A model generated the notes under the pieces. It saw only the letters and a list, made by a program, of their open reading frames with translations. It had not been told where the DNA came from and searched no databases. DNA of 64,000 nt, taken from Bacillota bacterium. Lineage in GTDB: Bacteria; Bacillota; SHA-98; UBA4971. Location: NCBI GenBank assembly GCA_030024085.1, contig JASEJE010000005.1, positions 8,735 to 72,734 on the forward strand, written 5' to 3'. Within the stretch, counting starts at the first letter, position 1. Each line of letters opens with the position of its first letter. A program made the translations under genes and the position numbers. Positions 7,797-51,838 of the stretch are shown piece by piece.

Positions 7797-7906
7797 GTCC
7801 TGCCATGCCTCATCCAGTAGCTCTGGTCCTGTTCCGCCCTATCACGCTCCAGGCTGGCCGGCCGGGTGCGACCCACCCGGCCGGTCACGGCCTCCCTGCG
7901 CCGCCT

Positions 7907-9028: not shown

Positions 9029-9168
9029 GGTTCGCCTCTTCCCGTCCCCATCCCCGCCCTGCCGGACCACAGCGCCGCCTGGCACCTTGCCGGAACAGTC
9101 CTCATCGCGATGCGCCTGGTTGTCGCCTTTCATGGGAGCTGTCACCGATACACCAACCTCTCCCTGCG

Positions 9169-10101: not shown

Positions 10102-10405
10102 GATACTTGCGAGCCTCCTTCCGTTGAACCGAACCGTCTGGTTGGCGCAGGAGAGTATCCCAGGATTCGACGGAGACCAGCCCGGGTCAGGTCGGGTGGG
10201 GTCGGGTCGCGGCATCCTCCTGAAGGCCACGGATTGCCGGCCGGGCCTGTACACTTACGTGTGGCTTCGACACGTCTGGCGCTCCGCTCCATGGACGCAG
10301 CGAGAAACGCGCGCCGGTGCCGGGGCGGAATGATCGCGCCCGCGACCCACCTGCTCTCCAGGTTGCAGCCGGAACCCTGCCACACGCCGCACGTCAGAAC
10401 GGCAA

Positions 10406-11094: not shown

Positions 11095-12321
11095 GTGCCG
11101 ATCCTGGGGAATGGCAACGAAGCGCCCGTCCCGCTTTCAGAGGCGCCCCTGGGCTCCGCGTGCCGCATCGTATGCCTGGTTGCTGCGGGGTTTTCGAGGA
11201 GGCGGCTTCTCGACGTGGGATTCGTCCCGGGAGCGTGCGTCGCCCCAGTGCGCCGCAGCCCTGCCGGCGATCCCACGGCGTATCGTGTGAAGGGCGCCCT
11301 CATCGCGGTTCGGGCGCAGGAGGCGAAGGAGATAATGGTGCACATCTTGCCGCCGGGGCTGCCCGCCGCCGGACGCGTGGTCTGGAACGATTCTCGCACC
11401 CCGGCCGTCGCCCCTGGCCCCGACTTCGACGCCGGCCTTGACCCCGGGTCCGGTACCGCATCTCTGACGGAGGTGAGTCCTGTGAGGTTCATGCACCACC
11501 CATCATTGCGCGTATCGTGCGGTGTTCGCAAGCCCCGGCCCGGCCGGTCGCAAGGTGCGCCCCCGCCTGTCTGCCGCACCGTCGCATTGGCGGGCAACCC
11601 TAACACGGGAAAGAGCACCGTCTTCAACGCCCTCACGGGGCTCGGCCAGCATACCGGCAACTGGCCGGGTAAGACCGTGGTCGTGGCGGAGGGCTTTTAT
11701 ACCCACCGTGGGACGACCTACCGTGTTGTCGATCTCCCCGGCACATACTCCCTCCTTGCCACGTCACCGGAGGAGGAAGTCGCGAGGGACTTCATATGCT
11801 TCGGCGAGGCCGACGCGACGGCCGTCGTGGCCGATGCAACATGCCTCGAGCGCAACCTCAATCTCGTCCTCCAGATCATGGAGATAAGGCCGCGAGTCGT
11901 GGTTTGCCTCAACCTCATGGACGAGGCGAGGCGCAAGGGGATCTCCGTGGACGCGAAAGGGCTTGCCTCGGAGCTCGGGGTCCCCGTCGTGCCTACCGCG
12001 GCGCGGGCGAGGCAGGGTCTCGCGGCGCTCATGGACGCTATAGCGGATGTGGCAAGCGGGCAGCTTCCCACAAGGCCGCTTGAGGTCACCTACAGCCCGG
12101 AGATCGAGGCGCTGGTGGGCGACATCGAACGGCCCCTTGCGGCGATCATGGGTGAGATCGCCCCAGGGATCTCCCTCCGCTGGCTCGCCCTCCGGCTCAT
12201 AGACGACGACCGCGGCCTTATCGAGGCGATCAACGAGAGGGTGAGCAAGAAACGAGCACAGGACACACGATCCAGGCGCGCGGCGCGTCCTGTGGCTGCG
12301 AGGAGCGGGATCCCGGCGTGA
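11095..12321 (+). CDS. feoB: FeoA domain fused in frame to the FeoB N-terminal GTPase plus GDI/helical domain (ferrous-iron transport)
   Basis: FeoA-like SH3 segment (LGSACRIVCLVAAG...VGFVPGACV...AYRVKGALIAVRAQEAKEIMV) and then the G-domain (ALAGNPNTGKSTVFNALTG, DLPGTYSL). The probable start is the GTG at 11095 after GGAGGGAGAG. The ORF-track start at 10885 reads through the repeat motif and is unlikely. Confidence 0.7.
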   Translation: MPILGNGNEAPVPLSEAPLGSACRIVCLVAAGFSRRRLLDVGFVPGACVAPVRRSPAGDPTAYRVKGALIAVRAQEAKEIMVHILPPGLPAAGRVVWNDSRTPAVAPGPDFDAGLDPGSGTASLTEVSPVRFMHHPSLRVSCGVRKPRPGRSQGAPPPVCRTVALAGNPNTGKSTVFNALTGLGQHTGNWPGKTVVVAEGFYTHRGTTYRVVDLPGTYSLLATSPEEEVARDFICFGEADATAVVADATCLERNLNLVLQIMEIRPRVVVCLNLMDEARRKGISVDAKGLASELGVPVVPTAARARQGLAALMDAIADVASGQLPTRPLEVTYSPEIEALVGDIERPLAAIMGEIAPGISLRWLALRLIDDDRGLIEAINERVSKKRAQDTRSRRAARPVAARSGIPA

Positions 12322-13718
12322 CTCGCGTGGCCAGCCGGCAGTTTCTCGATATCGTAGAGCAAGCCCGGCAGGCAAGATCACAGGTGCCGGGCGACGTCAG
12401 GGACCTCATGGTAACCAGGATATACGAGGTGGCCGGGACCATCTGCCAGAAGACGGTGCGCCGTGCGCCTCAACCAGCGCGCGATTGGGATACGCGCCTG
12501 GACGACGTCCTCACGTCGAGGCTTTTCGGGTACCCGTTCATGCTCGCCCTGCTGGGCGTGGTCTTCTGGATAACCCTGGTGGGCGCGAACGTCCCTTCAA
12601 GGCTACTGGCGGCCGCGCTCTTCTGGGGACAGGACCGGCTCCTGGACCTTTTCTCGTGGGCAAGTGCTCCCGCCTGGCTCACGGGCGTACTCGTCATGGG
12701 AGCGTATAGGGCGCTCGCATGGGTCGTGTCGGTCATGTTGCCGCCGATGGCGATATTCTTCCCGTGTTTCGCCCTGCTCGAGGACCTGGGCTACCTCCCA
12801 AGGGTGGCCTTCAACCTTGACGCCCTTTTCAAGCGCGCGGGCACCCACGGCAAGCAGGCCCTGACCATGTGCATGGGGTTCGGCTGCAACGCTGCGGGGG
12901 TGGTCTCGTGCCGCATAATCGACTCACCGCGCGAACGGCTCATTGCCATCCTCACCAACAACTTCGTGCCGTGCAACGGCCGGTTCCCGACCCTCATAGC
13001 CATGTCCGCCATGTTCTTCGGGGCGGGCCTGCGGGGCGGCACTGGCAGGGGTGGCTCCGCCGTGTCGCTCCTCGGCGCAGTGGTCCTCGGCATCGCCGTC
13101 ACGCTCGGCGTGTCGTGGCTCCTGTCGCGGACGTTGCTCCGCGGGGTTGCGTCCTCTTTCGTGCTCGAGCTCCCGTCGTACAGAAGACCCGAGGCCGTGA
13201 GGGTGATCGCGAGGTCCCTCCTCGACCGCGCCCTCTTCGTGCTTGTGAGGGCTGCGACGGTTGCGGCGCCCGCCGGGGCTGTGACGTGGGTGCTCGGGAA
13301 CGTGATGGCGGGCGGCGCAAGCCTGCTCGCCCGCGTGGCAGGCTTTTTTGATCCATTCGCACGCCTGATCGGGCTCGACGGACACATCCTCACCGCCTTC
13401 GTGCTCGGGCTACCCGCGAACGAGATAGTGATCCCCATCCTCCTGATGGGGTACTCCGGTGCCGGAGCCATGGTGGATGTCGGCGGGCTCGACGCCCTTC
13501 GAGCGGTGCTCGTGGCAAACGGGTGGACCCCGCTCACTGCGGCGTGCGTCATCCTGTTCTCCCTGCTCCACTATCCGTGCGCCACGACCCTCTGGACCAT
13601 CTGGCACGAGACCCGAAGCGCCAGGTGGACCGCGGTAGCGGCGCTCCTGCCGCTCGCCGTGGCCTGTGCAGTGTGCTTCACCGCGGCTTCCGCCGCAAGG
13701 CTCCTCGGACTGACGTGA
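12318..13718 (+). CDS. feoB: FeoB C-terminal part (linker plus polytopic gate/membrane domain)
   Basis: The N-terminus aligns to the FeoB linker (DLMVTRIYEVAGTICQKTV...DTRLDDVLTSRLFGYPFMLALLG resembles E. coli ...ARYQCIAAICDVV...DKIVLNRFLGLPIFL). It is followed by multiple TM helices. The GTG start overlaps the upstream TGA (GTGA). Confidence 0.7.
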   Translation: MTRVASRQFLDIVEQARQARSQVPGDVRDLMVTRIYEVAGTICQKTVRRAPQPARDWDTRLDDVLTSRLFGYPFMLALLGVVFWITLVGANVPSRLLAAALFWGQDRLLDLFSWASAPAWLTGVLVMGAYRALAWVVSVMLPPMAIFFPCFALLEDLGYLPRVAFNLDALFKRAGTHGKQALTMCMGFGCNAAGVVSCRIIDSPRERLIAILTNNFVPCNGRFPTLIAMSAMFFGAGLRGGTGRGGSAVSLLGAVVLGIAVTLGVSWLLSRTLLRGVASSFVLELPSYRRPEAVRVIARSLLDRALFVLVRAATVAAPAGAVTWVLGNVMAGGASLLARVAGFFDPFARLIGLDGHILTAFVLGLPANEIVIPILLMGYSGAGAMVDVGGLDALRAVLVANGWTPLTAACVILFSLLHYPCATTLWTIWHETRSARWTAVAALLPLAVACAVCFTAASAARLLGLT

Positions 13719-14947: not shown

Positions 14948-15252
14948 CCCGTGTTCACCATCCCATCTATGTACGGGTTCATGAACCCGCTGGCTTTCTC
15001 CACTTCGCGGCAACGCTGCAGGGTGAAGGTCAGGCGAGGCGCCCCGCCCTAGCAAGCGCCGGCAACCCTAACACCCCCAAGAAAAGTGGCGAAAACTTAT
15101 GGCGCCATACTTAGGCAAAACCAACGGTTTCGTTCAGAGAGTCCCACGAGCTCTCCAGCAGGTTCGGGGCAGCGATCTCAAGACTCACACCCATGCACGG
15201 TGCGGAGGCTGGGTCTTCCAGACGCTGCCTCCGGCCTCGCTCGGGCGTGAAG

Positions 15253-33689: not shown

Positions 33690-34104
33690 TCGCGCGTCCC
33701 CGCACGTTTCGCGCGCCTCGACCCGAGGCGGCGGTGTCGCGATCCAAGGGGACCAAAAACCCGTCACGGGCGAAGGCGGGGCGCGCACCCACATCCGGGA
33801 CGGGCGGTCGCAACGTGCCTCGCTGGAAGACCACTCCAATAGAACGGTGGAGCGTGGGCGAAAGTTCCAGCCCGCGCGAACCTGCCCCCAGCGTCAGCGC
33901 CTATGCAGATCACCACGAATTCGCGCTGCTTTTCAGCGCGCAGGTCCTCGCCAGGGTTGCCGGTGTTGCCTTCCGGGGACAGCGCGCGCGGTGAGATGCG
34001 TTCGAATTCGGCGCTTTGAGGCCAGCCAGATTCCAGGCGCCCCGCCCCGGCAATCACCGGCAACGCAGCAACTACCGGAAAACGGACCAAGGATCAGCGC
34101 ACCC

Positions 34105-34911
34105 TCACTTGGGGCGTCGTACTTGGCTGCTCAGAACGTACGACGCCATCTCGAAAGCGATGAGGGCGGCTCCGTACGCCCCGGCGAACTGCGCCTCCTC
34201 CGGGACTGTCACCCGACAGGAGAGCCTCTCCTCCAGCGACCTCCTGACGCCGTCGTTCCGGCTCACGCCCCCGGTCATGACCACCCCGCCGCCCAGCCCT
34301 ACCCGGTGCACCATCCCCGCCAGCCTGTCAGCCACCGCGTCACACAGGCCTTTGATTATCGGCTCCGGGACCACGCCACGAGAGAGCAGGCTTATGACCT
34401 CGGACTCAGCGAAAACCGTGCAGGTGCTGGAGATCCTCGCAGCCTCCTTCGCCTTTCGCCACCTCATGCCGAACTCCTCCAGCGGAACGTTCAGCCTCGC
34501 GGCCATCACCTCGAGAAACCTTCCGGTGCCCGCCGCGCACTTGTCGTTCATCACGAAGTCCGCGACCATGCCGTCGTCGTCCAGCCGGATGACTTTCGAG
34601 TCTTGGCCTCCGACGTCCACCACCACCCGCGCTGACGGAACGAGCGCCCGCGCGCCACGGGCGTGGCACGTAATCTCGGTCACCGTCCTCGCGACACCGG
34701 TCACTCTGTCCCTCCCGTACCCGGTCGCCACGAGGGCCGCAAGATTGTCATGGCCTACACCCGCTGCACCGCAAACGATGCGAAGGCATTCGTCCGCCGC
34801 GGCGGCAAGATCCACCCCAGTGGGCATCGCGTGCCTTGCCACACAATTCCTGTCACTCAGGAGGACAGCCTTGGTGGTTGTTGACCCGACGTCTACTCCC
34901 GCGACAAACAC
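34105..34911 (-). CDS. CoA-substrate-specific enzyme activase (BadF/BadG/BcrA/BcrD ATPase family; HgdC/HadI-like activator of 2-hydroxyacyl-CoA dehydratases)
   Basis: N-terminal acetate/sugar-kinase-type ATPase motif MFVAGVDVGSTTTKAVLL, a cysteine region for the bridging [4Fe-4S] cluster, and 268 aa length typical of HgdC/HadI. Confidence 0.75.
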   Translation of the reverse strand: MFVAGVDVGSTTTKAVLLSDRNCVARHAMPTGVDLAAAADECLRIVCGAAGVGHDNLAALVATGYGRDRVTGVARTVTEITCHARGARALVPSARVVVDVGGQDSKVIRLDDDGMVADFVMNDKCAAGTGRFLEVMAARLNVPLEEFGMRWRKAKEAARISSTCTVFAESEVISLLSRGVVPEPIIKGLCDAVADRLAGMVHRVGLGGGVVMTGGVSRNDGVRRSLEERLSCRVTVPEEAQFAGAYGAALIAFEMASYVLSSQVRRPK

Positions 34912-34917
34912 CCTCTG

Positions 34918-36234
34918 TCACCCGCCCCTCCGCGCACCGAGAAGCTCGATAAAGGCCCCTAGCCTGGTGATGGCCTGCGCCTCGCTGCCGCACCTCGCAT
35001 CCACCCCGTCCCCGTCGAGGTTGAGGAAGGGAATGCCCTTTTCCTTGAGTTCCGTGGCCAGGATCGCTGCCCCGCCGTTGGACTGCCTGCACCCCCACTG
35101 TGCGAACTGCACCACACCGTCGATGGAGTACTCGTCCACGAGTCTCGCGATGGCTTCGAGCCGACGCTCGATCGGGCCCCAGCCGAAGTTTGACATCATC
35201 TTCTCCGCAAGGCTCGCGAATGGATCACGGAGGTCGAGACTGGGCCAGTATGCGAAGCTGTACTCCTCGAAAGCCACCGACGAAGCGCAGTCGCCTTCGA
35301 GATACTTGAACACCCCCGTATCATAGTAGGGCCTCAGGTTCAGCCACAGGAGCCTGTGTCGCTCCTCCCGGATGGGGAAGTCACCTGCGGCGATCGTCCT
35401 CTCGAGATGCAGCCGAAGCGCGCGATAGAACGGCGAAAGGCCGGGGCTTCCCCACGACCACAGGAACAGAAGGACGTAGTTCAGCGCCTCGGACCCACGC
35501 CACGGAGCCGGCACGTTTCGCCTCAGTGCCGAGACTCGCTCGTATTCGGCAAGAGCTTCGTTGGAGCGGCGAAGCGCCTGCGCGAGCCCCTCGAGGGAAA
35601 GCCCCGGCACGCGCCGTGCGAGGTCCCCCGCCACCTGCTCGATCTGGGAAGCAAGCCACCGCGTGGCCCGGTCGGAAGGCACGTACGGGACGCCCAGCAT
35701 GTAGAACGGGCATCCGGCGAGCCGGCTGATGTGAAAGAGCGACCTTTTTCCCCCGTCGCACAGGTGGGACGTGACGATGACGGCGGACGGGCGCGGCAGA
35801 AGACCCGCCGCGGCTCCGCCCAGGCCCGCCCGGTGGAAGCTGCAAAGGTCCGGCGAGTACCAGAGGGCCTCGCAGGCCGAGAGGCTCCTTGCGGCAAGGT
35901 CGGAGGCTGCCGCAAGCCCGGCTGCGGCCTCAGGCAGGAACGGCACGCCGCCGAGGCCGTAAACCAGCTCGGTGGGTACGAAGGCGCTCGTGAATATGCA
36001 GGGCCTGCGGCCGAGATAGGCATCGGCGAAATCAGAGAGCACGCATCTTATCGCCGCGACCTGGTATGCCTTCGCCCCGCGCAGCTCAAGCAGAGGAAGC
36101 GCCGCGGAGGCGACCTGGTAGGCCCAGCGCCTGCGCAGCAGGACCTCCGGCCGGGCCACCGCCCACCGGGCCGCTCGCCCGGCCGCTCGGCGGGCCGTCC
36201 GCCGGAGCCTCGATGGGATGCCGAGGTGCATCAT
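34918..36234 (-). CDS. 2-Hydroxyacyl-CoA dehydratase-family subunit (HgdB/HadC-like)
   Basis: ~430-aa Cys-containing protein immediately upstream of the activase with a 4-nt overlap with the partner subunit. The family call is by architecture and context; I did not verify the conserved Cys ligands by alignment. Confidence 0.55.
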   Translation of the reverse strand: MMHLGIPSRLRRTARRAAGRAARWAVARPEVLLRRRWAYQVASAALPLLELRGAKAYQVAAIRCVLSDFADAYLGRRPCIFTSAFVPTELVYGLGGVPFLPEAAAGLAAASDLAARSLSACEALWYSPDLCSFHRAGLGGAAAGLLPRPSAVIVTSHLCDGGKRSLFHISRLAGCPFYMLGVPYVPSDRATRWLASQIEQVAGDLARRVPGLSLEGLAQALRRSNEALAEYERVSALRRNVPAPWRGSEALNYVLLFLWSWGSPGLSPFYRALRLHLERTIAAGDFPIREERHRLLWLNLRPYYDTGVFKYLEGDCASSVAFEEYSFAYWPSLDLRDPFASLAEKMMSNFGWGPIERRLEAIARLVDEYSIDGVVQFAQWGCRQSNGGAAILATELKEKGIPFLNLDGDGVDARCGSEAQAITRLGAFIELLGARRGG

Positions 36235-37493
36235 CCCAGCCCCAACCGTCCTTCCAGCATCTCCCTGAAGGCCGTGACGCGGGTAAGGGTCTGGCCCGAT
36301 ATGGCTGACCCATAATCGCCCTCCAGAAAGAGCATGGGCAGCCCTTCACCCTCGCCCACCTGCCCCTTCAGCTCTGCAAAATCGTAATACGCGTGGTCGC
36401 AAAACTTCGGCGCGAAATATACGATCCCCTGGGCCCCCGATGAACGGGCGAGTGCCCAGAGACGCCGCGCTCGCGCATCTCCCGCGAACATCCTGGGACA
36501 CGCGGGCTTACTGAGGTATGCGCGGGCGAGCACGCGGAACGGATCAGGTCGCGCCCCGCCAGGACCATCCGCGTCCGCGCACGCGCGCGCCCCATCCGCC
36601 CCATTCTCCGTCTCATGAGGGCCTGCGTCCACCGGGACCTCGAGGCCGAAGCTGCGCGACCCGAGGCACGAATCGACGAAAGCCACCGCAAGCCCTGCGT
36701 CCTCGAGGACGCCGAGAAGCGCGGGTTCCAGGAGGCACGTCCCCGAAACCCCAACACGCACGCCCTGGTCCCTTGCACGTCCATCTCCGGTGGCGTCGGC
36801 GCGGTGCATCGTTCTCTCAAGCACGGCCGCAGCTCTCGCCAGCGCCCTGGCAGCTTCATCTCCGTCCCCTAGACCCCTTCTGCCATCTGGCTGCGCGGCA
36901 ATGCGAGGGTCCTCGAGGTCACCCTTCAACTCCCCTCCAAGGGCGTCGTTCACCCCGAGCGTCAGGTACATCGCATCCACAGCCGACATATGGCCGGCCG
37001 CCTGAAGCTCGAACACCCGCAAAAGCCCGCTCCGGAGCCGGTTCATGGAGCGCGTGACGGCAAGAAGCCTCCGCTGGAACGACGGACCGTCCACACTGTC
37101 CACGAGTGTCCCGACCCCACCCCGTTCGCGGCCTGATATCCCCGCAAGACCCTGGGCGAACTCCCTCAGCACCTCGGCATAGTAGGCCTCGGCACCGCTG
37201 CCGCAAGCTCGGGGCACATCTACGAAATGGACCTCTCGGGCAAGGCCGAAGTAGCGCAGCGCATCGCAGGCGCGCCTCATGGCATCGCAGGAACCGGCCA
37301 TGGCGATGCGCTCGTCTTGCAGGTATTCACGGGCGAACGCCTTCGCGTACGAGCAGAAGTCACGCGGAAGATAGGCCTCGCAGGAGGGACCCGGTCCCCA
37401 GAACACGGCCCTCTTCGCTGGCATCCCGAGGGCAAGCGGGATCTCAAGTGGCACATAACCGCACGAGACCAGAACCAATCGAATTCCTCCCAT
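36231..37493 (-). CDS. 2-Hydroxyacyl-CoA dehydratase-family subunit (HgdA/HadB-like)
   Basis: 420-aa partner subunit (MGGIRLVLVSCGYVPLEIPLALGMPAKRAVFWGP...). Same caveats as the HgdB-like gene. Confidence 0.55.
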   Translation of the reverse strand: MGGIRLVLVSCGYVPLEIPLALGMPAKRAVFWGPGPSCEAYLPRDFCSYAKAFAREYLQDERIAMAGSCDAMRRACDALRYFGLAREVHFVDVPRACGSGAEAYYAEVLREFAQGLAGISGRERGGVGTLVDSVDGPSFQRRLLAVTRSMNRLRSGLLRVFELQAAGHMSAVDAMYLTLGVNDALGGELKGDLEDPRIAAQPDGRRGLGDGDEAARALARAAAVLERTMHRADATGDGRARDQGVRVGVSGTCLLEPALLGVLEDAGLAVAFVDSCLGSRSFGLEVPVDAGPHETENGADGARACADADGPGGARPDPFRVLARAYLSKPACPRMFAGDARARRLWALARSSGAQGIVYFAPKFCDHAYYDFAELKGQVGEGEGLPMLFLEGDYGSAISGQTLTRVTAFREMLEGRLGLG

Positions 37494-37674
37494 GAAAGCA
37501 GCCTGTCACTGCGCGTCAGCGGATGAGTCTACTATTCCTCACAAATCGCGCCTTCTCCTGCCGGTCACCCTCAAGCCGGGGCCGCCGCAGCTGACTCAGG
37601 TGAGCGGGCCAGCGTGGTCTCCAGACCGGTACTTTCCGGAAGAGGCATAATGCTGCAATGCTGCAAATTCGCCC

Positions 37675-37702
37675 TTGACAGGAAGGGCCGAACGGGTATA
37701 CT
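37675..37702 (+). promoter_or_regulatory. SigA-like promoter: -35 TTGACA (37675-37680), 16-nt spacer, -10 TATACT (37697-37702), reading toward leuA
   Basis: Consensus -35 and a 5/6 -10 with canonical spacing, in the AT-richer divergent intergenic region. It predicts a ~315-nt leader. Confidence 0.4.
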
Positions 37703-37709
37703 TTAAGGC

Positions 37710-38025
37710 CATATACATACATATGCTTGCCGTTGGTTGGCGACTAGCAGGTAATACACTCGCGTGTGCCGACCATCGCCGCACCCGCTGTGCATATGTA
37801 TGCATCGCGCTAAGTGTGAGTTCAGAAATCCATGCCGGTTTGGGAGAAGATTCCGGGTCGCCGGTGCTTGCTAGGGCGGGGCGTCGAGAATTTGGCCAGC
37901 CTTAAGCGCCAAATTCGAACGAGGCTCACCGCACGCGCCGTCCCCGGAGGGCAACACCGGCAACCCTGGAAAAGTGGCGGTGATTTCTGAACCCACACTT
38001 AGAGAACAAGAGGAGGGAAGAAGCA
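37710..38025 (+). promoter_or_regulatory. Long structured 5' leader of the leuA-like operon (candidate attenuator/riboswitch-like element)
   Basis: Nested long-range inverted repeats. GTTCAGAAATC (37820-37830) is the reverse complement of GATTTCTGAAC (37982-37992), and CATACATATGC (37716-37726) of GCATATGTATG (37792-37802). There is also an internal 9-bp hairpin (37888-37916). No T-box sequence or Leu-rich leader peptide was found. Confidence 0.3.
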
Positions 38026-39174
38026 TTGAATGAGAGAGACAAGAAGGTGCTGATCGTTGACACGACGCTACGTGATGGGGAGCAGACAGCAGGCGTCGTG
38101 TTTGCCCGCACGGAGAAACTGCGGATCGCGAGGATGCTTGACGAAATCGGGGTGGACCAGATTGAGGCCGGGATCCCCGCCATGGGTGGCGACGAGAAGG
38201 AGGCGGTCAAGTCAATCGCCCACGCGGGTCTCGAGGCCAGCATCATGGCCTGGAACAGGGCCGTAATCTCAGACATAGATGCCTCGGTCGAGTGCGGAGT
38301 GGATGCCGTAGCCGTATCCATTTCGGTTTCGGACATACACATCCTTCACAAGCTCCGGGTGACACGCCAGCAGGTCCTTGACGCCATGACACAGGCGGTG
38401 GTTCATGCAGCACAGCACGGCCTGTACATATCCGTGAACGCCGAGGACGCGAGCCGCGCTGAGCCCGCCTTCCTCCTCGAGTTCGCCATGGCGGCGAAGA
38501 GCGCGGGCGCGAACAGGCTCCGCTACTGCGACACCGTCGGCCTGCTGGACCCCTTGACCATGTATGACCGCGTCAAAACCCTTCGCGAGCAGACCGGGCT
38601 CGACATCGAGACCCATACCCACAACGACTTCGGAATGGCGACCGCTAACGCCCTGACAGGCGTGCAGGCGGGTGCCAGGTACGTCGGGGTCACGGTAAAC
38701 GGTCTCGGTGAGCGAGCAGGCAACGCGGCTCTCGAGGAGGTCGTGATGGCCCTCAAGCACATCTTCGGCATCGACCTCGGGATCAAGACCACCAGGTTCA
38801 GGGAGATTTCCGAGTATGTGGCGAAGGCCTCGGGCAGGGAGATACCGCCCTCGAAGCCCATTGTCGGCGCAAACACGTTCGCCCATGAGTCGGGCATCCA
38901 TGCAGATGGAGTCCTGAAGAATCCCAGAACGTACGAAGTCTTCCCGCCCGAGGAGGTAGGGCTCCAGCGGCAGATCATCATCGGGAAGCACTCCGGGAAG
39001 CACGCGCTCAAGGCGAAGTTCCTTGAATATGGCATCAACCTCACAGACGAGCAGGCGGCAGCCATGTTGCCCGCAGTGCGCACCGCTGCGGTAAACCTCA
39101 AGCGCCCCCTCTTCGATAAGGAGCTTGTATACATATACGAGGACGCCATGAGGGACATGTCCGCTCACAGGTAG
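38026..39174 (+). CDS. LeuA/CimA/NifV-family 2-oxoacid:acetyl-CoA condensing enzyme (short form, no C-terminal regulatory domain)
   Basis: TTG start after AGGAGGG. It has the DRE-TIM aldolase motifs (VDTTLRDGEQ; HTHNDFGMATAN). At 382 aa it lacks the LeuA allosteric domain, which is consistent with citramalate/homocitrate synthase-type enzymes. Confidence 0.8.
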   Translation: MNERDKKVLIVDTTLRDGEQTAGVVFARTEKLRIARMLDEIGVDQIEAGIPAMGGDEKEAVKSIAHAGLEASIMAWNRAVISDIDASVECGVDAVAVSISVSDIHILHKLRVTRQQVLDAMTQAVVHAAQHGLYISVNAEDASRAEPAFLLEFAMAAKSAGANRLRYCDTVGLLDPLTMYDRVKTLREQTGLDIETHTHNDFGMATANALTGVQAGARYVGVTVNGLGERAGNAALEEVVMALKHIFGIDLGIKTTRFREISEYVAKASGREIPPSKPIVGANTFAHESGIHADGVLKNPRTYEVFPPEEVGLQRQIIIGKHSGKHALKAKFLEYGINLTDEQAAAMLPAVRTAAVNLKRPLFDKELVYIYEDAMRDMSAHR

Positions 39175-39210
39175 CGAGCGGCGCCAGCGCATAAGGGAGG
39201 CATCGTCAGC

Positions 39211-40467
39211 TTGGGAAAGACCATCGCCGAGAAGATCCTCTCAAGCCACTCGGGCATCGACGCGCGTGCCGGAGACATCGTCCTCGCTGACGTGGACTTC
39301 GTGATGGGGCAGGACGGGACATCGCCTCTCGCCATCAAGGCGTTCCGCGAAATGGGCGGCGAGAGAGTCTTCGACCCCGCGAAGGTCGCCATGGTGATAG
39401 ACCACGGCGCGCCCAGCCCCAACGAAGGCACGGCCAACCTGCACAGGCTCATGAGGGACTTCGCCAGAGAGCAAGGCATCATCCTCTATGACATCGGCGA
39501 GGGCGTGTGTCATCAACTCATCCCAGAGCGCGGGCACGTTCTGCCAGGAGACCTCGTCATAGGAGCAGACTCACATACCTGCACCTATGGCGGCCTCGGC
39601 GCGTTCTCCACCGGGGTAGGGTCCACCGATCTCGCGGCAGCCCTTATCACGGGCAAGACGTGGCTCAAGGTGCCGGAGAGCATGCGGATCGTGTGCAAAG
39701 GCCGGCTGCCGGCGGGGACGTACAGCAAGGACCTGGCGCTACACCTTGTCGGCAGGCTCACAGCCTCCGGTGCCGCATACGTGTCGTGTGAGTTCTGCGG
39801 CGAGGCCGTGGAGCTTCTTGGCGTGGATGGCAGGCTCACGCTCTGCAACATGGCGGTGGAGACGGGTGCGAAGGCCGGGATCATCGCTCCCAGCGGCGAG
39901 GTGCTTGCATGGGTGCGCGGTCGCTCGAAGAAGAAGTTTCGTCCGGTCTTCGCCGACGAAGGGGCTTCCTACGTGGACGAGCGCGAGCACGACGTCTCAC
40001 GTCTCGCGCCACAGGTAGCCCGTCCACACAGGGTGGACCAGGTATGCGATGCGTCGGACCTCGCGGGGACCGAGGTTCACCAGGCCTTCATTGGCACCTG
40101 CACAAATGGCCGTCTGGAAGACCTCCGCGTCGCTGCGACGATACTCGAAGGAAGGAAGATACACCCCTCTGTGCGCCTCGTGGTGGCGCCGGCGTCCAGA
40201 CAGGTCCTCATGGACGCGATGCGCGAGGGCGTGCTGAAGATCCTCCTGGAGGCGGGTGCCGCAGTAGTGGTCCCCGGCTGTGGGCCGTGCGTCGGCACGC
40301 ATGCCGGCGTGCCCGCGGGCGGCGAGGTCGTGATATCCACCGCCAACCGCAATTTCAAGGGAAGAATGGGCAATTCCTCGGCCGAGATATACCTCGCCTC
40401 ACCCGCGACGGTGGCGGCCTCGGCCATCACAGGAAAGATCACGGACCCCAGGAAGTTCCTCGGGTAA
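39211..40467 (+). CDS. leuC: 3-Isopropylmalate/(homo)aconitase-type dehydratase large subunit (LeuC/HACN family, ~418-aa type)
   Basis: MGKTIAEKILSSHSG...VMGQDGTSPLAIKAF and the aconitase-family Cys ligands (GTCTNGRLEDL, VVPGCGPCVG). Confidence 0.85.
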   Translation: MGKTIAEKILSSHSGIDARAGDIVLADVDFVMGQDGTSPLAIKAFREMGGERVFDPAKVAMVIDHGAPSPNEGTANLHRLMRDFAREQGIILYDIGEGVCHQLIPERGHVLPGDLVIGADSHTCTYGGLGAFSTGVGSTDLAAALITGKTWLKVPESMRIVCKGRLPAGTYSKDLALHLVGRLTASGAAYVSCEFCGEAVELLGVDGRLTLCNMAVETGAKAGIIAPSGEVLAWVRGRSKKKFRPVFADEGASYVDEREHDVSRLAPQVARPHRVDQVCDASDLAGTEVHQAFIGTCTNGRLEDLRVAATILEGRKIHPSVRLVVAPASRQVLMDAMREGVLKILLEAGAAVVVPGCGPCVGTHAGVPAGGEVVISTANRNFKGRMGNSSAEIYLASPATVAASAITGKITDPRKFLG

Positions 40468-40519
40468 CGGGCAAGAAAAGGCCCGGCCAACGGTTGGTTA
40501 TCACAGGGGTGATGGCTAA

Positions 40520-41023
40520 GTGGTCTTGAGAGGAAGATCCCACAGGTTCGGCGACGACATCAATACCGACTACATCATCGCCGGGAAGTACAAGTTCAAG
40601 ACGCTCGACATGGACGAACTCGCGAGGCACGTGATGGAGGACCTTGACCCTGGATTCCATGCGAGGCTCAAGCCTGGCGACTTCATCGTGGCAGGGAAGA
40701 ACTTCGGGTGCGGCTCTTCCCGGGAGCAGGCGCCGCTTGCCCTCATCCACGCGAAGGTCGGCGCGGTCATCGCAGCATCGTTCGCCAGGCTCTTCTACAG
40801 AAACGCGGTGAACACCGGACTGCCCGTGGTGGAGTGCGACACCGGCAGCATTCTCGACGGGGACGAGCTCGAGGTCGACCTTAGCCGCGGCACCGTGCGC
40901 AACCTCACGCGCGGCACCACCGTCAGGGCAAGCCCTCTTCCCCCGTTCATGCAGCGAATCTTCGAGGACGGTGGTCTTGCGGCCCATATCCGCAAGCACG
41001 GGGGATTCCACCTTGGCACATGA
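40520..41023 (+). CDS. leuD: 3-Isopropylmalate/(homo)aconitase-type dehydratase small subunit
   Basis: MVLRGRSHRFGDDINTDYIIAGKYKF and GKNFGCGSSREQAPLAL, the typical LeuD swivel-domain motifs. Confidence 0.85.
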   Translation: MVLRGRSHRFGDDINTDYIIAGKYKFKTLDMDELARHVMEDLDPGFHARLKPGDFIVAGKNFGCGSSREQAPLALIHAKVGAVIAASFARLFYRNAVNTGLPVVECDTGSILDGDELEVDLSRGTVRNLTRGTTVRASPLPPFMQRIFEDGGLAAHIRKHGGFHLGT

Positions 41024-41127
41024 TGTTGCCGTGTCAACCGCACGAAGCCACCGCACCCGCCCACCTGGGGGCTAGGGGTCTTCCGTGGTCATCAATAGCG
41101 TCCGCGTAGCGGGGGTGGAAATAGACC

Positions 41128-42132
41128 GTGTCGCACAGAGTAACGCTCATCCTCGGGGACGGCATCGGTCCCGAAGTGGTCCTCGCGGCAAAGCGAGTGC
41201 TCGAAGCCACCGGAGCCGCGATCGAGTGGGAACAGGTGCAGGCAGGTGCGGAAATGCTGGCGCGCTGCGGCACTCCGCTCCCCGACGAGGTCGTCGAGTC
41301 GGTGCGACGGACCGGCGTCGCGCTCAAAGGCCCCGTCACGACGCCTGTAGCGAGCGGGTTCCGCAGCGTCAATGTGGGTCTGCGTGTTGCTCTCGACCTT
41401 TATGCCAATGTCCGCCCGGTTAGAACGCTGCCCGGCGTGCCCGGAAGGTATGCTCGAGTGGACCTCGTGATCTTTCGAGAGGCCACTGAGGACGTATACG
41501 CGGGCAAGGAGCGATGGGTGGACGAGGACACGGCAGAAACGGTCAAGGTCATTACCCGAAGGGGCTCGGAACGCATCGCCCGCGCCGCGATGGAGTTCGC
41601 CAGGCGCGAGGGACGACGTCGGGTGACCTGCGGCCACAAGGCCAATATCATGAAGCTCACTGATGGGCTTTTCCTCGACTGCGCCTGCACGGTGGCCCGC
41701 GACTACCGGGAGATCGAGTTCGACGATCGCATCATCGACGCCCTGTGCATGCAGCTCGTCATGGCACCAGAGAGCTTCGACGTGCTGCTCCTGCCCAATC
41801 TGTACGGGGACATCGTGTCGGACCTCGCGTCGGGACTTGCAGGCGGGCTGGGACTCGCTCCCGGGGCCAACATCGGGGACGAAATAGCCGTCTTCGAGCC
41901 CGTCCACGGAAGTGCCCCCGAGCTCGCGGGGCGAGGGATCGCAAATCCCATCGCCACGATCCTGTCCGCCGCCATGATGCTGCGACACCTCGAAGAGGCT
42001 GAACGCGCCGCCGCCGTTGAAGCTGCGGTTATGAAGGTGCTGGCCGAAGGCCGCGTGCTTACTCCCGACCTCGGCGGCAAGGCCACCACCGACAAAATGG
42101 CGGATGCCATAATCGCTGCGCTTCCTACCTGA
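41128..42132 (+). CDS. leuB: 3-Isopropylmalate dehydrogenase / isocitrate-homoisocitrate dehydrogenase family
   Basis: [14 protein letters not shown]-terminus and [27 protein letters not shown], the family signature. Confidence 0.85.
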
Positions 42133-48122: not shown

Positions 48123-48337
48123 GGCAAAAGAGAAACCACAGGCAAATGCAAAGGCGCGCCTTCGCGGCGCTCTCCACGTGGTCGCAGCACGCAGGCCACG
48201 GCGCGGCGCGCTGTCGGTCTTGTCGGCCGCCGCGCTGCCCACGCGGCGGCGCGCGACGGGCCGGCGGCACCGCCTCCGGGGAGGCCCCGAGACGGCTGCC
48301 CGTGGCAACGGCCTCAAGTCCCAGGGAGGGGAGCACG

Positions 48338-48748
48338 ATGAACGAGGTTCTGGGGCGGATCAGGGAGTTCCACGGCCATCTTGGTCCGTACGTAGTTATC
48401 GGTTACAGGATGGGGCTCCTTGCCCTCGAACAGCTCCGCGCGAAGAAGTACTTCGGCATCACGGTCGAGTCATTCGCAGGAGATACACCCCCGGTTTCCT
48501 GCATGAACGACGGGCTGCAGCTCTCAACGGGCTGCACGTTCGGTAAGGGCAACATCAGGAACATCGCGTCCGGCGACCCATGCGCAAGAATCACATCTGG
48601 CGGGAGAGCCGTGGTCGTCAGGCTCAAACTCGCTGTACAGCGGTCCCTCCCCGACGTCCTCAAGCATGAAAACGAGGGGGCCGCTGCGGAGCACATCTTC
48701 GGCCTTGCAGACGAAGAGCTCTTCGACTGGGAGCCGGCGACGGACTGA
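48338..48748 (+). CDS. FmdE-domain (formylmethanofuran dehydrogenase subunit E-like) small protein
   Basis: FHGHLGPYVVIGYRMG resembles the FmdE-family HGH...GYR motif. The start ATG at 48338 follows GGGAGGGGAG. The ORF-track extension to 48146 is unlikely. Confidence 0.5.
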   Translation: MNEVLGRIREFHGHLGPYVVIGYRMGLLALEQLRAKKYFGITVESFAGDTPPVSCMNDGLQLSTGCTFGKGNIRNIASGDPCARITSGGRAVVVRLKLAVQRSLPDVLKHENEGAAAEHIFGLADEELFDWEPATD

Positions 48749-48877: not shown

Positions 48878-51838
48878 TTAGCTTTCCTCGTGGCTCCTTC
48901 GGAGCACCTCAACGACGCCCCGCCCCCCGTCGACAACTACGAGATCCCCGGTGTGCAGCCTGGTCGTCGCCCCTTCGACCTGCAGCACCGCTGGAATTCC
49001 GTACTCCCTGGCAACCACAGCGCTATGGGACAGAAGGCCTCCCTCTTCAAGCACGATGGCAGACGCAACGTTGAAAAGGGGCATCCAGCCGGGGTTTGCA
49101 AAGGGCGCCACCAGGACCTCGCTTTTCCGGAGGGTGCCCGCCTCGTCGAGAGATCGGATCACCCTGGCGACGCCGCGAACCACCCCTGCCGAGCAGCCCA
49201 CGCCCGTATACGCCTGATGCGCGCTCTCAGCCTCCGTCACGGGAGCAGGCCTGGTATTCTGGCGGTTGAGGTATACCATGGCGACTGTATCCTCCGTGCT
49301 CCGTGCGCGAGGAGCCAGAGAACGCTTTGTGAGAATGCGAGCAGGCCCCGGCTGGATCACAGGTGGAGGGACGAAGTTCCTGTACGCCACGGGGATGCGG
49401 CGCCTTCTCTTGACCGTCTCAAGTACCTTCCGAAAGTCAGCTGACCCCTCAAGCAAGCCGAGCACTTCATCGCGGGACATCCAGAAGATGTCGTCGTCCA
49501 CGCCGAGCATGCCCCTTGCCGCCCAGCGCCTCCCCTGCTCCTTGAGGAAGCGCCTCGTATGGTACCTGGCGCGGCTGAGATACACGCGGGTTTCCTCGCG
49601 CCACCACGCAAGATGCCTCACCAGTTCGAGCTGCGCGCGGAAGCCGCGAAGCCGGAAGGCGTTGAGCCAGGCGGCCCACCCCGGCGACCGCAGCATACAG
49701 GCGGCGACCTCTTCCTCCTCCCTGCGCACCTGCTCCTGGCGGGCTATCTGCAGCCGCGGGTCCTCCCCGACCTCTCCAGACAAACATGCCTGCAGCATCG
49801 AGAGAGGGAGGGCCACGTCCTCGGACCATCTTGGAACAGCGAGGTCCTCGTCAACCTCCGACATATAGCGGAACTGCGAGATGCACGCGGTGAATTGTCT
49901 CCAGAACTCCCCCAAATCGGGCGGCTCGCCGCCGGTGGTACACGAGCCGTCCCCGGCCTCGGCCTCCCATCTTCTGAACACCTCCGAAAGCTCCCGGGGC
50001 GACAGCCTCTTCAGAGTGTCTGCAACCACGGGCCTTGCCTCGGCAAACCTGGCAAGCTCCCAGAGAGCAGCCAGGGGCCTCGCCGTGGCCATTCGGGAGA
50101 TGCCGGTGAGAAGACGGGCCTCGGATACCGCCCTGCCTGCTTTTTTCGCGTGCCTGTTGAGCTTCTCTACCGTGGCATGAAAGTCGTCCTGGGCCTGCGT
50201 CCCGAGGAGAGAGATCACGAGGGCCCAACGGTTGGCCCGCCAGTGCAGGTCGATGGCGAACTTTGCCCACGACTTGAGGTCCGCGTCGTCAAGCGCTTCC
50301 GGCTTGACCTCGTCCCACTTGCGCTCATTTGCGTCGAACCATGAGATAAAACGTCTAGCCTCCTCGACCGCGAGCCGGTAATGCTTCTTCAGAGCGAAAA
50401 GCGAGGGAAGCGCGCGCAGGACCGTCGCAGGCGTCCATGGGGTCACATCTCCGTCCCCTTCATATGAGGGGACGATCCCGACCGTCCGGTCGAAGGCACG
50501 CTCCCTGAAACCTGGGACCCGCGCCGCCACCCGCTTGGCCGCCCCCACGTTCCAGTAGCCGTGGCCGAAGAACGTCGCTGCCCACCTGGTGCCTGCGTCC
50601 TCCTTACGGTACAGCCTTATGCGCTTGAAGACCTCGTCCATCGCTCGGGCAAAATCGTGGTGGAAAGACATGGACTGGCTCAGATAAGAGGCAAACCCAG
50701 GCATCACCTCCCTGAAGTTCGCCGACGTCCACTCACCGAAATCTGCCGCGAAAGAAAAGGCTGTGAGGGGACGCGCCTGAAGTATGAAGATCTCGCTACC
50801 AGACAGGGCCCACTCGATATCTTGGGGCAGGCCATACCCCTCCTGGATCTTCTCGCCCAGTCGGGCAAGGTGTAGCAGAGCCCCGTCATCGAGCGTGCGC
50901 TTCGTCCGCATCTCGTCAGGCACAGGTGTTGGCCCCGCACCACCGGGCGCCACCATAACCTTCTTGTCGCTCACCCGCACATCCACAACCGCTTCGGCCC
51001 AGGTGTCTACCAGGAATCTGTCAGGCGTGGCGAGGCCCGCCACCAGCGCCTCGCCCAGTCCCCAGGTGGCCTCAACCAGCATCTCGTTCTCCTTGCCAGA
51101 CTGGGGATTGAGGGTAAAGAGGATGCCGCTCACCTCCGCGGGCACCTCGAGCTGCACGACTACGGCCATAGCCTGCTCCAAGTGGCCCCGACCACGCCGT
51201 GTCTCGCGATGCGGCGAGTACCCGCGCGTTCTCTCCCCATTCAGCGATCCCCAACAGGCGAGGACGGCCTCGACCAGGGCATCCCAGTCCTCGACTCCGA
51301 GGACCGTGTCGTACTGTCCCGCATGCGAAGACCCCACCTCATCCTCTACGTTAGCAGAGGATCGTACAGCACAAGACGCAGCCGGATGAAAGCGAAGAAG
51401 CTCCTCGTAGGCCTCGCGGACCGCGCTCCACAGCCTGGACGCCATGTCCCGCTGCGGCCCAGAGTCGGCCCCGCACCCGGCATCCGTGGTCGGCAGCTCC
51501 CCGCCCGCGGCGCTTGAGTCGCCTGGCACGCTCATGGGCGAGAGCAACGCTCTGCTCTCGGGCTCCGCTATCCCCCGCGCATCACAGTGGTCCCCTGCCG
51601 CATGCCGAAGATAGGCTGCGGTCGTGATGACAAACCCTCGGGGCACCGGCAACCCTGCGCGGAGCAGCCTGGCGAGGTTGCGCGCCTTCCCGCCCACGAG
51701 GGCATCATGCTCGGGTCCGATCTCGTCAAGCCTCAAAACGTAGGGATCCACCTGGACGTTTCCTCCATGGCCCTGGTCACTTTCAGGGGATGTACGGGGC
51801 CGGCACCCCGGCGGCGACCATGCTCTCCACCAGGTCAA
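48878..51838 (-). CDS. PEP-utilising enzyme of the PEP-synthase / rifampin-phosphotransferase-like family (N-terminal PPDK-type ATP-grasp, central helical domain, C-terminal phosphohistidine swivel domain)
   Basis: N-terminal LVGGKARNLARLLRAGLPVPRGFVIT (PPDK_N) and C-terminal GGLLSHSAVVAREYGIPAV (mobile His domain). The 986-aa length and domain order match RPH/PpsA-like proteins. Confidence 0.65.
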   Translation of the reverse strand: MTWWRAWSPPGCRPRTSPESDQGHGGNVQVDPYVLRLDEIGPEHDALVGGKARNLARLLRAGLPVPRGFVITTAAYLRHAAGDHCDARGIAEPESRALLSPMSVPGDSSAAGGELPTTDAGCGADSGPQRDMASRLWSAVREAYEELLRFHPAASCAVRSSANVEDEVGSSHAGQYDTVLGVEDWDALVEAVLACWGSLNGERTRGYSPHRETRRGRGHLEQAMAVVVQLEVPAEVSGILFTLNPQSGKENEMLVEATWGLGEALVAGLATPDRFLVDTWAEAVVDVRVSDKKVMVAPGGAGPTPVPDEMRTKRTLDDGALLHLARLGEKIQEGYGLPQDIEWALSGSEIFILQARPLTAFSFAADFGEWTSANFREVMPGFASYLSQSMSFHHDFARAMDEVFKRIRLYRKEDAGTRWAATFFGHGYWNVGAAKRVAARVPGFRERAFDRTVGIVPSYEGDGDVTPWTPATVLRALPSLFALKKHYRLAVEEARRFISWFDANERKWDEVKPEALDDADLKSWAKFAIDLHWRANRWALVISLLGTQAQDDFHATVEKLNRHAKKAGRAVSEARLLTGISRMATARPLAALWELARFAEARPVVADTLKRLSPRELSEVFRRWEAEAGDGSCTTGGEPPDLGEFWRQFTACISQFRYMSEVDEDLAVPRWSEDVALPLSMLQACLSGEVGEDPRLQIARQEQVRREEEEVAACMLRSPGWAAWLNAFRLRGFRAQLELVRHLAWWREETRVYLSRARYHTRRFLKEQGRRWAARGMLGVDDDIFWMSRDEVLGLLEGSADFRKVLETVKRRRRIPVAYRNFVPPPVIQPGPARILTKRSLAPRARSTEDTVAMVYLNRQNTRPAPVTEAESAHQAYTGVGCSAGVVRGVARVIRSLDEAGTLRKSEVLVAPFANPGWMPLFNVASAIVLEEGGLLSHSAVVAREYGIPAVLQVEGATTRLHTGDLVVVDGGRGVVEVLRRSHEES

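Follow-up and report, generated by a model that had tools for sequence, protein, structure and literature searches.

What does an ATP-dependent radical enzyme act on when no pathway gene beside it points to a substrate? Three adjacent minus-strand genes raise this question in a 64-kb stretch of DNA (here called the window; G+C content, ~64%) from a Bacillota bacterium (GenBank assembly GCA_030024085.1, contig JASEJE010000005.1). In order of transcription, they encode a B-like subunit, an A-like subunit, and an activase, and we refer to them as the trio. A preliminary description had presented them as an orphan activase with two subunits of the 2-hydroxyacyl-coenzyme A (CoA) dehydratase (HAD) type. 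Here, we propose with middling confidence that its three components make up a self-contained ATP-dependent electron-injection (“archerase”) system of the superfamily that holds benzoyl-CoA reductases (BCRs), HADs, and double-cubane proteins, and that this is likelier a thioester reductase than a dehydratase. The trio is real and not an artefact; what we say of its cofactors and chemistry was drawn from sequence.

Three genes and the predicted clusters of their products

The three open reading frames (ORFs) match the Pfam families HGD-D (both subunits) and BcrAD_BadFG (activase), and the activase passes the TIGR00241 model for acyl-CoA dehydratase activases (270.5 bits against a cutoff of 125.4). 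Membership in the BCR/HAD radical-enzyme superfamily is thus borne out, as are the gene content, the coordinates, and the activase length of 268 amino acids that had been given before (Table 1).

To describe the B-like subunit, we measured conservation on an alignment of 74 B/A pairs. C11, C47, C69, C276, C332, and C365 (numbering of the 420-amino-acid ORF) were invariant in all 74 sequences, and no other alignment column held Cys in 30% or more of them. In a HMMER alignment to the BzdN chain, these six residues pair one to one with Cys36, Cys73, Cys100, Cys263, Cys293, and Cys327, the ligands of the [8Fe-9S] double-cubane cluster of BzdN (PMC11971306), and they also align with ligand cysteines of the double-cubane cluster protein DCCP. 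The median spacing in the family, C-x35-C-x26-C-x160-C-x30-C-x32-C, is almost that of BzdN (36, 26, 162, 29, and 33). An AlphaFold2 (AF2) model of B, built with database homologues (pLDDT, 82.9), matched the fold of DCCP best (6eno, 6e-18), followed by BzdN (8s02_B, 5.7e-17) and then HadC (1e-14). We predict from these observations that B carries an [8Fe-9S] double-cubane cluster.

Three inserts in B are specific to the lineage of the window and modeled with low confidence (residues 126 to 128, 190 to 208, and 292 to 311; pLDDT, <50). They are rich in Gly, Ala, Asp, and Arg (residues ~115 to 135, 185 to 215, and 285 to 315), are missing from most family members, and are predicted to be disordered. 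They widen the gaps from the third cysteine to the fourth and from the fourth to the fifth, and they leave the ligands untouched.

In the A-like subunit, C131, C159, and C382 were likewise invariant (74/74), and the family signatures CSFHR (131 to 135) and WGCRQ (380 to 384) surround the first and the last of them. C131 and C382 align with Cys95 and Cys380 of BzdO, and C159 falls one residue off Cys128 (HMMER); in BzdO, these three cysteines are the ligands of an open-site [4Fe-4S]-OH2 cluster. The AF2 model of A (pLDDT, 92.8) matched the folds of HadB (3o3m; TM score, 0.79/0.86), BzdO (8s02_A; 0.76), and BzdO/MbdO (0.76 to 0.78), with lower scores for DCCP, BzdN, and HadC. Pocket residues were placed by alignment to BzdO only; on that placement, most of the invariant positions close to the predicted substrate site carry polar or charged side chains. 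W330 adjoins BzdO Leu302, and R383 and Q384 correspond to Glu381 and Gly382 at the BzdO cluster (PMC11971306 for the BzdO side). Trp46, Glu65, and His131 of BzdO surround the benzoyl ring in its active site; in the HMMER alignment, Glu65 lies next to a gap, and an invariant Glu of A (E102) is close by. We predict that A binds the substrate and carries out catalysis, with an open-site [4Fe-4S] cluster.

The activase begins with VFVAGVDVGSTTTK. Its best sequence matches in the Protein Data Bank (PDB) were MbdQ (1.6e-65), HadI (2.7e-64; 220 bits), HgdC (4.9e-60; 206 bits), and DCCP-R (9e-47), and its cysteine motifs C125 (NDKCAAGTG) and C164 (STCTVFAESE) align with those of HadI and MbdQ. It is expected to be an ASKHA-fold ATPase, the archerase proper, in which C125 and C164 of two identical chains hold one bridging [4Fe-4S] cluster. 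Because the six B cysteines align with the BzdN ligands at almost the same spacing and the B model lies nearer DCCP and BzdN than HadC, the predicted cofactor set of the trio is that of a Bzd-type BCR core joined to a single HAD/DCCP-style activase.

Distribution, fusions, and candidate reaction

By word-indexed homologue search, A had 130 relatives and B had 36, mostly with generic names or none; their sources were Bacillota metagenome-assembled genomes, Halothermothrix orenii, Moorella/Neomoorella, Thermanaeromonas, Desulfotomaculum-type organisms, and others. When one genome per species was scanned by pattern, 232 loci proved to encode a relative, and we analyzed 80 of these (by record title, approximately 49 Bacillota, 15 Thermodesulfobacteriota/“Deltaproteobacteria,” 7 Chloroflexota, 2 Spirochaetota, 2 Actinomycetota, 1 Armatimonadota, and 4 others). 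A profile search of 1.84 billion representatives gave 807 matches at E values of ≤1e-30. Among the loci analyzed, the order B-A-activase was kept in species of at least six phyla, and the activase directly followed A in 61 of the 74 loci with enough sequence there (tblastn). The gene neighborhood is conserved within the trio itself.

Outside the trio, it is not. A Pfam scan of the ~50 predicted genes in the 64 kb detected no CoA-transferase, acyl-CoA dehydrogenase, electron-transferring flavoprotein (ETF), D-2-hydroxyacid dehydrogenase, or enoyl-CoA hydratase, in agreement with the absence of pathway partners noted before. Benzoyl-CoA pathway genes (ferredoxin BzdM, dienoyl-CoA hydratase, and downstream genes) were also missing from the 64 kb, no second activase or HGD-D gene was detected in the window by tblastn, and no complete known pathway lies within ~27 to 34 kb on either side. 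For the related loci, we combined all-versus-all clustering of 1,139 ORFs with a Pfam scan of 57 operonic neighbors. No neighbor was universal over 82 related loci, no family occurred in more than 5 of the 57 operonic neighbors, and CoA-transferase, D-2-hydroxyacid dehydrogenase, acyl-CoA dehydrogenase, and ETF were absent from these 57. The orphan status proposed for the window is thus a trait of the family and not a peculiarity of the source genome. Minor recurrent neighbors encode an L-lactate dehydrogenase (L-LDH)-like protein (7 loci), an AMP-forming acyl-CoA synthetase (AMP-binding; 6 loci), an aminotransferase (5 loci), and IorA/IorB, the subunits of an indolepyruvate oxidoreductase (IOR), with a PaaK-like CoA ligase (5 to 7 loci; the PaaK-like type in 5). 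An acyl-CoA made from a 2-oxo or 2-hydroxy acid would fit these neighbors, but their occurrence is too sporadic for more to be built on it.

Fusions were sought among the 150 best profile matches, with domains assigned by Pfam. Fusions of B to A exist (e.g., P0283) and support a B-A complex, and fusions of A to the activase (P0329, P0371, and P0405) suggest a permanent 1:1 association. Additionally, A-like domains (profile E values, 1e-75 to 1e-94) stand directly behind a phosphopantetheine carrier in nonribosomal peptide synthetase (NRPS) proteins of ~1,500 amino acids (TubC_N-C-A-PCP-HGD-D; P0345, P0363, and P0403) and in a polyketide synthase (PKS) of 2,004 amino acids (DH-KR-KS-ACP-ACP-HGD-D; P0400). 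At both fusion loci examined (L083 and L084), the activase is the next gene and a stand-alone B-like gene is nearby. The L083 cluster also holds a short-chain dehydrogenase/ketoreductase (SDR/KR) gene and an MMPL transporter gene. In the literature searched, we found no report of BCR/HAD-type radical domains within NRPS/PKS assembly lines.

The carrier-fused A domains keep E89, E102, C131, R135, C159, D160, R294, W297, E324, WGCR, D409, D412, R424, and E430. They are 30 to 35% identical to the stand-alone subunits and differ at six otherwise invariant sites (H134, R238, E323, W330, R358, and Q384), which marks them as a sister clade and not as orthologues. The NRPS/PKS-linked B-like proteins keep four of the six cysteines, with C11 and C276 replaced by Ser; set against this loss, the invariance of all six in stand-alone members looks functional. 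The shared catalytic core may act on thioester-tethered acyl groups, since A-like domains follow carriers, the best fold matches of A are the CoA-ester-binding HadB and BzdO, and CoA ligases recur beside the trio. Substrate specificity may be set at the six differing sites, whose polar or basic residues in the stand-alone family hint at an acyl group that is small, polar, and perhaps carboxylated.

On this basis, we propose the following electron path. The activase homodimer, with its one bridging [4Fe-4S] cluster reduced by ferredoxin or flavodoxin, would hydrolyze ATP and pass a very low-potential electron to the B-A heterodimer. The BzdN-like [8Fe-9S] double cubane of B would relay this electron, and may store more than one, on the way to the [4Fe-4S] cluster of A, in which one iron would lack a Cys ligand. 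That open iron would bind the carbonyl oxygen of a thioester (acyl-CoA or, possibly, acyl-carrier-protein), and a ketyl-type radical would form. Because the double cubane has so far been found only in reductases, HADs have lost it, and the activase is almost always beside B and A and sometimes fused to A, we favor a reductase that adds two electrons stoichiometrically to a small polar substrate activated as a thioester, a reading to which we give close to an even chance, over a redox-neutral dehydration, which seems unlikely to us. More tentatively, and as something possible rather than probable, the trio may stand for a widespread and as yet unstudied class of ATP-driven double-cubane reductases, with a BzdNO-like core and a single HAD-type activase, that reduce a common polar nonaromatic thioester by two electrons, in Birch-like or ketyl-type fashion, within the core metabolism of strict anaerobes; the sister clade would then be an in-line tailoring or release domain behind NRPS/PKS carriers.

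Several observations weigh against a reductase of this kind. The modeled fold of A fits the dehydratase HadB as well as the reductase BzdO and so is compatible with either reaction type. The catalytic His131 of BzdO is not conserved and falls on a Gly in A (HMMER alignment). The carrier-fused domains, which point to a thioester, are the ones that depart from the stand-alone family at the six sites named above. We infer the cluster types from cysteine patterns only. The trio has one activase gene, while two different ATPase subunits (BzdP and BzdQ in the Bzd type) are a trait of true class I BCRs. Thirteen of the 74 loci had no activase in the flank examined; they appear to form two groups, one in Syntrophomonadaceae and one “LDH-neighbor” group. 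No conserved neighbor among the 82 related loci hints at a substrate. Lastly, literature searched by accession (ACL70357/9, WP_012636540/2, and B8CYI8/J0) and by topic held no characterization of the family, as its earlier labeling as uncharacterised had implied; a similarly annotated gene pair in Thermoanaerobacterales was listed by annotation alone (PMC8760340).

Given these points, the alternative that survives best, which we still consider unlikely, is the genuine redox-neutral 2-hydroxyacyl-CoA dehydratase of the preliminary description, whose substrate would be made by enzymes encoded elsewhere and whose double cubane would do no more than park the single recycled electron. The HgdAB/HadBC-type architecture holds as far as the three cysteines of A and the single activase of the HadI/HgdC type, and the A model fits HadB slightly better than any reductase subunit. 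It breaks down at B, which has six invariant cysteines against three in HadC and HgdB and whose model fits DCCP and BzdN better than HadC; characterized HADs are without a double cubane (PMC11971306, PMC7317905). Profile comparison did not bear out a dehydratase family either: neither subunit reached any HadB/HadC, Bzd, or double_cubane equivalog cutoff, and the dehydratase scores were low (HadB NF052455, 46.1 bits against 750; HadC NF052456, 32.2 against 700). The occasional neighbors linked to 2-oxo and 2-hydroxy acids (the L-LDH-like, IorAB, and aminotransferase genes, and CoA ligases at 11 loci) would suit a dehydratase, as would the SDR/KR gene beside an NRPS-linked relative, which is consistent with a carrier-bound 2-oxo group being converted first to the 2-hydroxy and then to the enoyl form. 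However, HADs catalyze the syn-elimination of water from (R)-2-hydroxyacyl-CoA, with ATP used only catalytically, and the LDH-type neighbors belong to the L-specific family. The lack of CoA-transferase, D-2-hydroxyacid dehydrogenase, acyl-CoA dehydrogenase, and ETF genes, in the 64 kb as among the operonic neighbors, and the A-activase fusions, which argue for a permanent 1:1 complex, also count against dehydration.

Improbable in our view is a DCCP-like small-molecule reductase, in which the double cubane of B would be the active site for a small unsaturated or N- or S-containing molecule and A would be a structural or electron-transfer partner. Both subunits have double_cubane (NF040772) as their best profile match, yet at 65.5 and 66.3 bits they score far under its cutoff of 350. 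The best fold match of B is DCCP, and stand-alone operons with variable neighbors are typical of DCCP and YjiLM (PMC7317905); DCCP, however, is a 7-Cys homodimer, whereas B lacks the seventh Cys and is always accompanied by a strongly conserved second subunit with three Cys. Moreover, A is the more conserved partner and has many invariant polar residues, which suggests that the active site is in A, and the NRPS/PKS fusions place the A-like domain, not B, on the carrier protein.

It is also improbable that the trio acts with a recurrent radical S-adenosylmethionine (rSAM)/SPASM neighbor to modify a lipid or cofactor, for example by ester or acyl reduction like that of PlsA and Ger on a membrane or cofactor substrate: one orthologous rSAM-SPASM family (36 to 88% pairwise identity) does adjoin the trio in 12 of 82 loci from Halanaerobiales, Thermoanaerobacterales, Syntrophomonadaceae, and Thermodesulfobacteriota, 5′ of it in Firmicutes and 3′ in delta lineages, so that adjacency is kept while order varies, and the examples of PlsA and Ger establish lipid ester reduction by BCR/HAD-type enzymes (PMC13159169), but no such rSAM gene is in the window, the family is much larger than that of the trio (>7,400 matches at 1e-30) and stands alone in other genomes, including that of Desulfothermobacter acidiphilus with the trio at a separate site, and the trio lacks the BBD(H) architecture and DUF2229 that mark PlsA and Ger (PMC13159169). 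We also rejected Tes and Mss as identities for this neighbor, given a match to Tes (7tol) of only 1e-4, an identity with Mss that was not established, and its stand-alone occurrence elsewhere and absence from the window. The rSAM-SPASM proteins, a highly conserved and uncharacterised family, have ~460 to 500 amino acids with an N-terminal extension of ~100, and they fall below every NCBIfam cutoff, with NirJ2 and AhbD as best matches.

Very few proteins are known with an [8Fe-9S] double cubane, and the structurally characterized ones are DCCP, which has no known physiological role, and BzdN. If the prediction of a double-cubane reductase holds, a heterodimeric double-cubane family exists in acetogens, syntrophs, sulfate reducers, Dehalococcoidia, and halophilic fermenters. 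It would offer a conserved, operon-complete system of expressible size for studying roles of the double cubane beyond aromatic-ring reduction, and a route to asking which hard reduction anaerobes spend ATP on. The carrier-protein fusions suggest that such radical chemistry also takes place on NRPS/PKS-tethered intermediates. The database names “2-hydroxyacyl-CoA dehydratase subunit D” and “2-hydroxyglutaryl-CoA dehydratase” are likely misleading for metabolic reconstructions.

Gene boundaries and surroundings

The true start of the B gene is most likely the TTG at 37478, five codons into the ORF, which gives 415 amino acids, because a GGGAGG Shine-Dalgarno sequence precedes it by 7 nucleotides (nt) and because a database protein with 100% identity across the 99% of the B query that aligned has 415 amino acids. 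Of the 4-nt overlaps described earlier, the one at the B/A junction was found (an ATGA start/stop overlap), while A and the activase are separated by a 6-nt spacer that ends at a GTG start codon. A terminator-like hairpin with a T-run lies ~335 nt past the activase stop and ~107 nt before the ABC ATPase gene described below. The signal is weak, as two terminator-like sites were found in the region against 3.4 expected by chance; it suggests that the trio is probably a transcription unit apart from the downstream ABC-2 system. No riboswitch or leader RNA was found before the trio in an Rfam scan of 37300 to 38200 at E values of ≤1.

Table 1. Positions of the trio, its putative ligand codons, and other features (window coordinates unless a locus is named)
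Feature	Position	Strand	Remarks
B-like subunit	36231-37493	-	420-amino-acid ORF; Pfam HGD-D (PF06050), 1.8e-42
A-like subunit	34918-36234	-	438 amino acids; Pfam HGD-D, 2.8e-58
Activase	34105-34911	-	268 amino acids; Pfam BcrAD_BadFG, 1.6e-62
B Cys codons	37461-63, 37353-55, 37287-89, 36666-68, 36498-500, 36399-401	-	C11, C47, C69, C276, C332, C365
A Cys codons	35842-44, 35758-60, 35089-91	-	C131, C159, C382
Terminator-like hairpin and T-run	33759-33771	-	Consensus scan and sequence reading; pattern match only
Sigma-70-like promoter match	37675-37702	+	TTGACA-16-TATACT; strong
Divergent cluster	38026-42132	+	NifV-type, HacA/B-family, and dehydrogenase genes
Inverted repeat copies	33917-34108 and 37810-38002		~125-190 nt
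Repeat fragment	~15037-15068		
Cobalamin riboswitch RF00174	10474-10727	-	62 bits, E value of 5.9e-13
Periplasmic-binding-protein/FecCD/ABC-ATPase operon	9169-10254, 7907-9172, 6987-7796		Directly downstream of the riboswitch
PPDK_N protein	48878-51838	-	986 amino acids
FmdE-domain protein	48146-48748	+	200 amino acids
NRPS fusion, locus L083	560-5146		1,528 amino acids; with 5143-5922 and 12233-13351
PKS fusion, locus L084	1525-7539		2,004 amino acids; with 7576-8379 and 8543-9658
rSAM-SPASM gene, locus L001	7179-8567		Family also at L030, L039, L042, L044, L048, L051, L052, L054, L066, L070, L077

The window genes were also scanned with NCBIfam. Downstream (3′) of the trio are genes for a GldA-like ATP-binding cassette (ABC) ATPase, an ABC-2 permease, and a GldG-like auxiliary protein, as expected from the Gld-type ABC-2 system reported there, followed by DUF4340, metallo-β-lactamase-fold, and TldD/PmbA genes. 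The divergent cluster had been taken for leuA/cimA-leuCD-leuB. Instead, it holds a NifV-type (homocitrate/Re-citrate-synthase-like) gene of 382 amino acids without the LeuA regulatory domain (TIGR02660, 527 bits against a cutoff of 463), HacA/B-family aconitase subunit genes, and a gene for a dehydrogenase like isocitrate or homoisocitrate dehydrogenase (ICDH/HICDH). Its product is likely 2-oxoglutarate or 2-oxoadipate, not leucine precursors. A promoter match faces this cluster (Table 1). Beyond it are genes for a P-type ATPase, SpoIID, CysK, serine acetyltransferase, and others. A functional tie between this cluster and the trio was considered and dropped. Only the three closest relatives share the layout; the look-alike layouts at two distant loci (L020 and L065) use LeuA/CimA-type genes of 503 to 508 amino acids that are 38 to 39% identical to the NifV-type gene, and since these layouts are not orthologous, we take the adjacency as coincidence.

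Two inverted copies of a repeat flank the trio, with one 66-nt segment 89% complementary and one 58-nt segment 74% complementary. The downstream copy begins at the activase stop codon; the upstream copy, within the divergent intergenic region, has a 32-nt inverted repeat at its borders (CTAAGTGTGAGTTCAGAAATCC). In the closest relative (L017), only the downstream copy is present (96% identical), another relative (L011) has a fragment at a different site, and a further fragment lies elsewhere in the window. The single copy and the stray fragments rule out the repeats as cassette or transposon ends of the trio, and the repeat looks like a dispersed element of the miniature inverted-repeat transposable element/repetitive extragenic palindromic (MITE/REP) kind, not a boundary of the trio.

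Elsewhere in the window, the sole Rfam match is a cobalamin riboswitch directly 5′ of an operon that presumably encodes a corrinoid uptake system. A gene for a protein with a PPDK_N ATP-binding domain and a C-terminal PEP-utilizers mobile domain adjoins one for an FmdE-domain protein that has no NCBIfam match.

Comparison with known systems

BzdNO (PDB 8S02; PMC11971306) closely resembles the predicted B-A core. Both are heterodimers of two HGD-D-fold subunits, one with six Cys at the positions of an [8Fe-9S] cluster and one with three at the positions of an open [4Fe-4S] cluster (one of them off by one residue), both would take electrons from an ASKHA-type ATPase (the BzdPQ module in the Bzd system), and BzdNO gave the best PDB sequence matches of both subunits (7.8e-14 and 1.3e-12). 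The double cubane of BzdN accumulates at least two electrons (PMC11971306). Unlike the Bzd system, the related loci have one adjacent activase or none, the window has no BzdM ferredoxin or dienoyl-CoA genes, and the profile scores are about one-tenth of the equivalog cutoffs for the core (BzdO, 47.7 bits against 448.6; BzdN, 42.5 against 453.8); BzdQ was not reached either (179.8 against 380.2). Host organisms such as Moorella and Halothermothrix are not known to degrade benzoate.

With HadBC/HadI and HgdAB/HgdC (PDB 3O3M, 4EHT, and 1HUX), the trio shares the plan of an alpha subunit, a beta subunit, and a single homodimeric activator, as well as the three-Cys open [4Fe-4S] site in the catalytic subunit. 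It differs in that B keeps all six double-cubane cysteines and in that the CoA-transferase/dehydrogenase/ETF context is lacking. In HadC, three Cys hold a [4Fe-4S] cluster whose fourth iron carries a sulfhydryl (PMC7317905), and both double cubanes have been lost in HADs (PMC11971306).

DCCP with DCCP-R (PDB 6ENO and 7YYL) and Escherichia coli YjiM/YjiL share with the trio the six double-cubane cysteines and the best fold match of B, a stand-alone operon with a single adjacent activase, and the lack of a known physiological substrate. In contrast to the DCCP pattern (CX19CX18-19CX29CX166-170CX32-34CX32C), B has no counterpart of the seventh Cys (DCCP Cys94), and the trio has an obligatory second subunit, A, with three Cys and with the ligands of the distal subcluster lost. 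Jeoung et al. classified 7-Cys DCCPs and 3-Cys alpha/beta clusters and described no heterodimer of a 6-Cys and a 3-Cys subunit (PMC7317905).

PlsA/PlsR and Ger belong to the same superfamily and are strictly anaerobic, activase- and ATP-dependent systems that reduce ester or thioester carbonyls, there too without pathway neighbors. They are large multidomain proteins with two fused activase domains, DUF2229, and a fragmented HGD-D (BBDHDDH; PMC13159169), whereas each subunit in the window has one full-length HGD-D, the activase is separate and single, and no DUF2229 (PF09989) match was found by Pfam. Taken together, these comparisons indicate that the trio, which misses at least one defining feature of each of the Bzd, HAD, DCCP, and PlsA/Ger systems, is a distinct, uncharacterised subfamily of its own.

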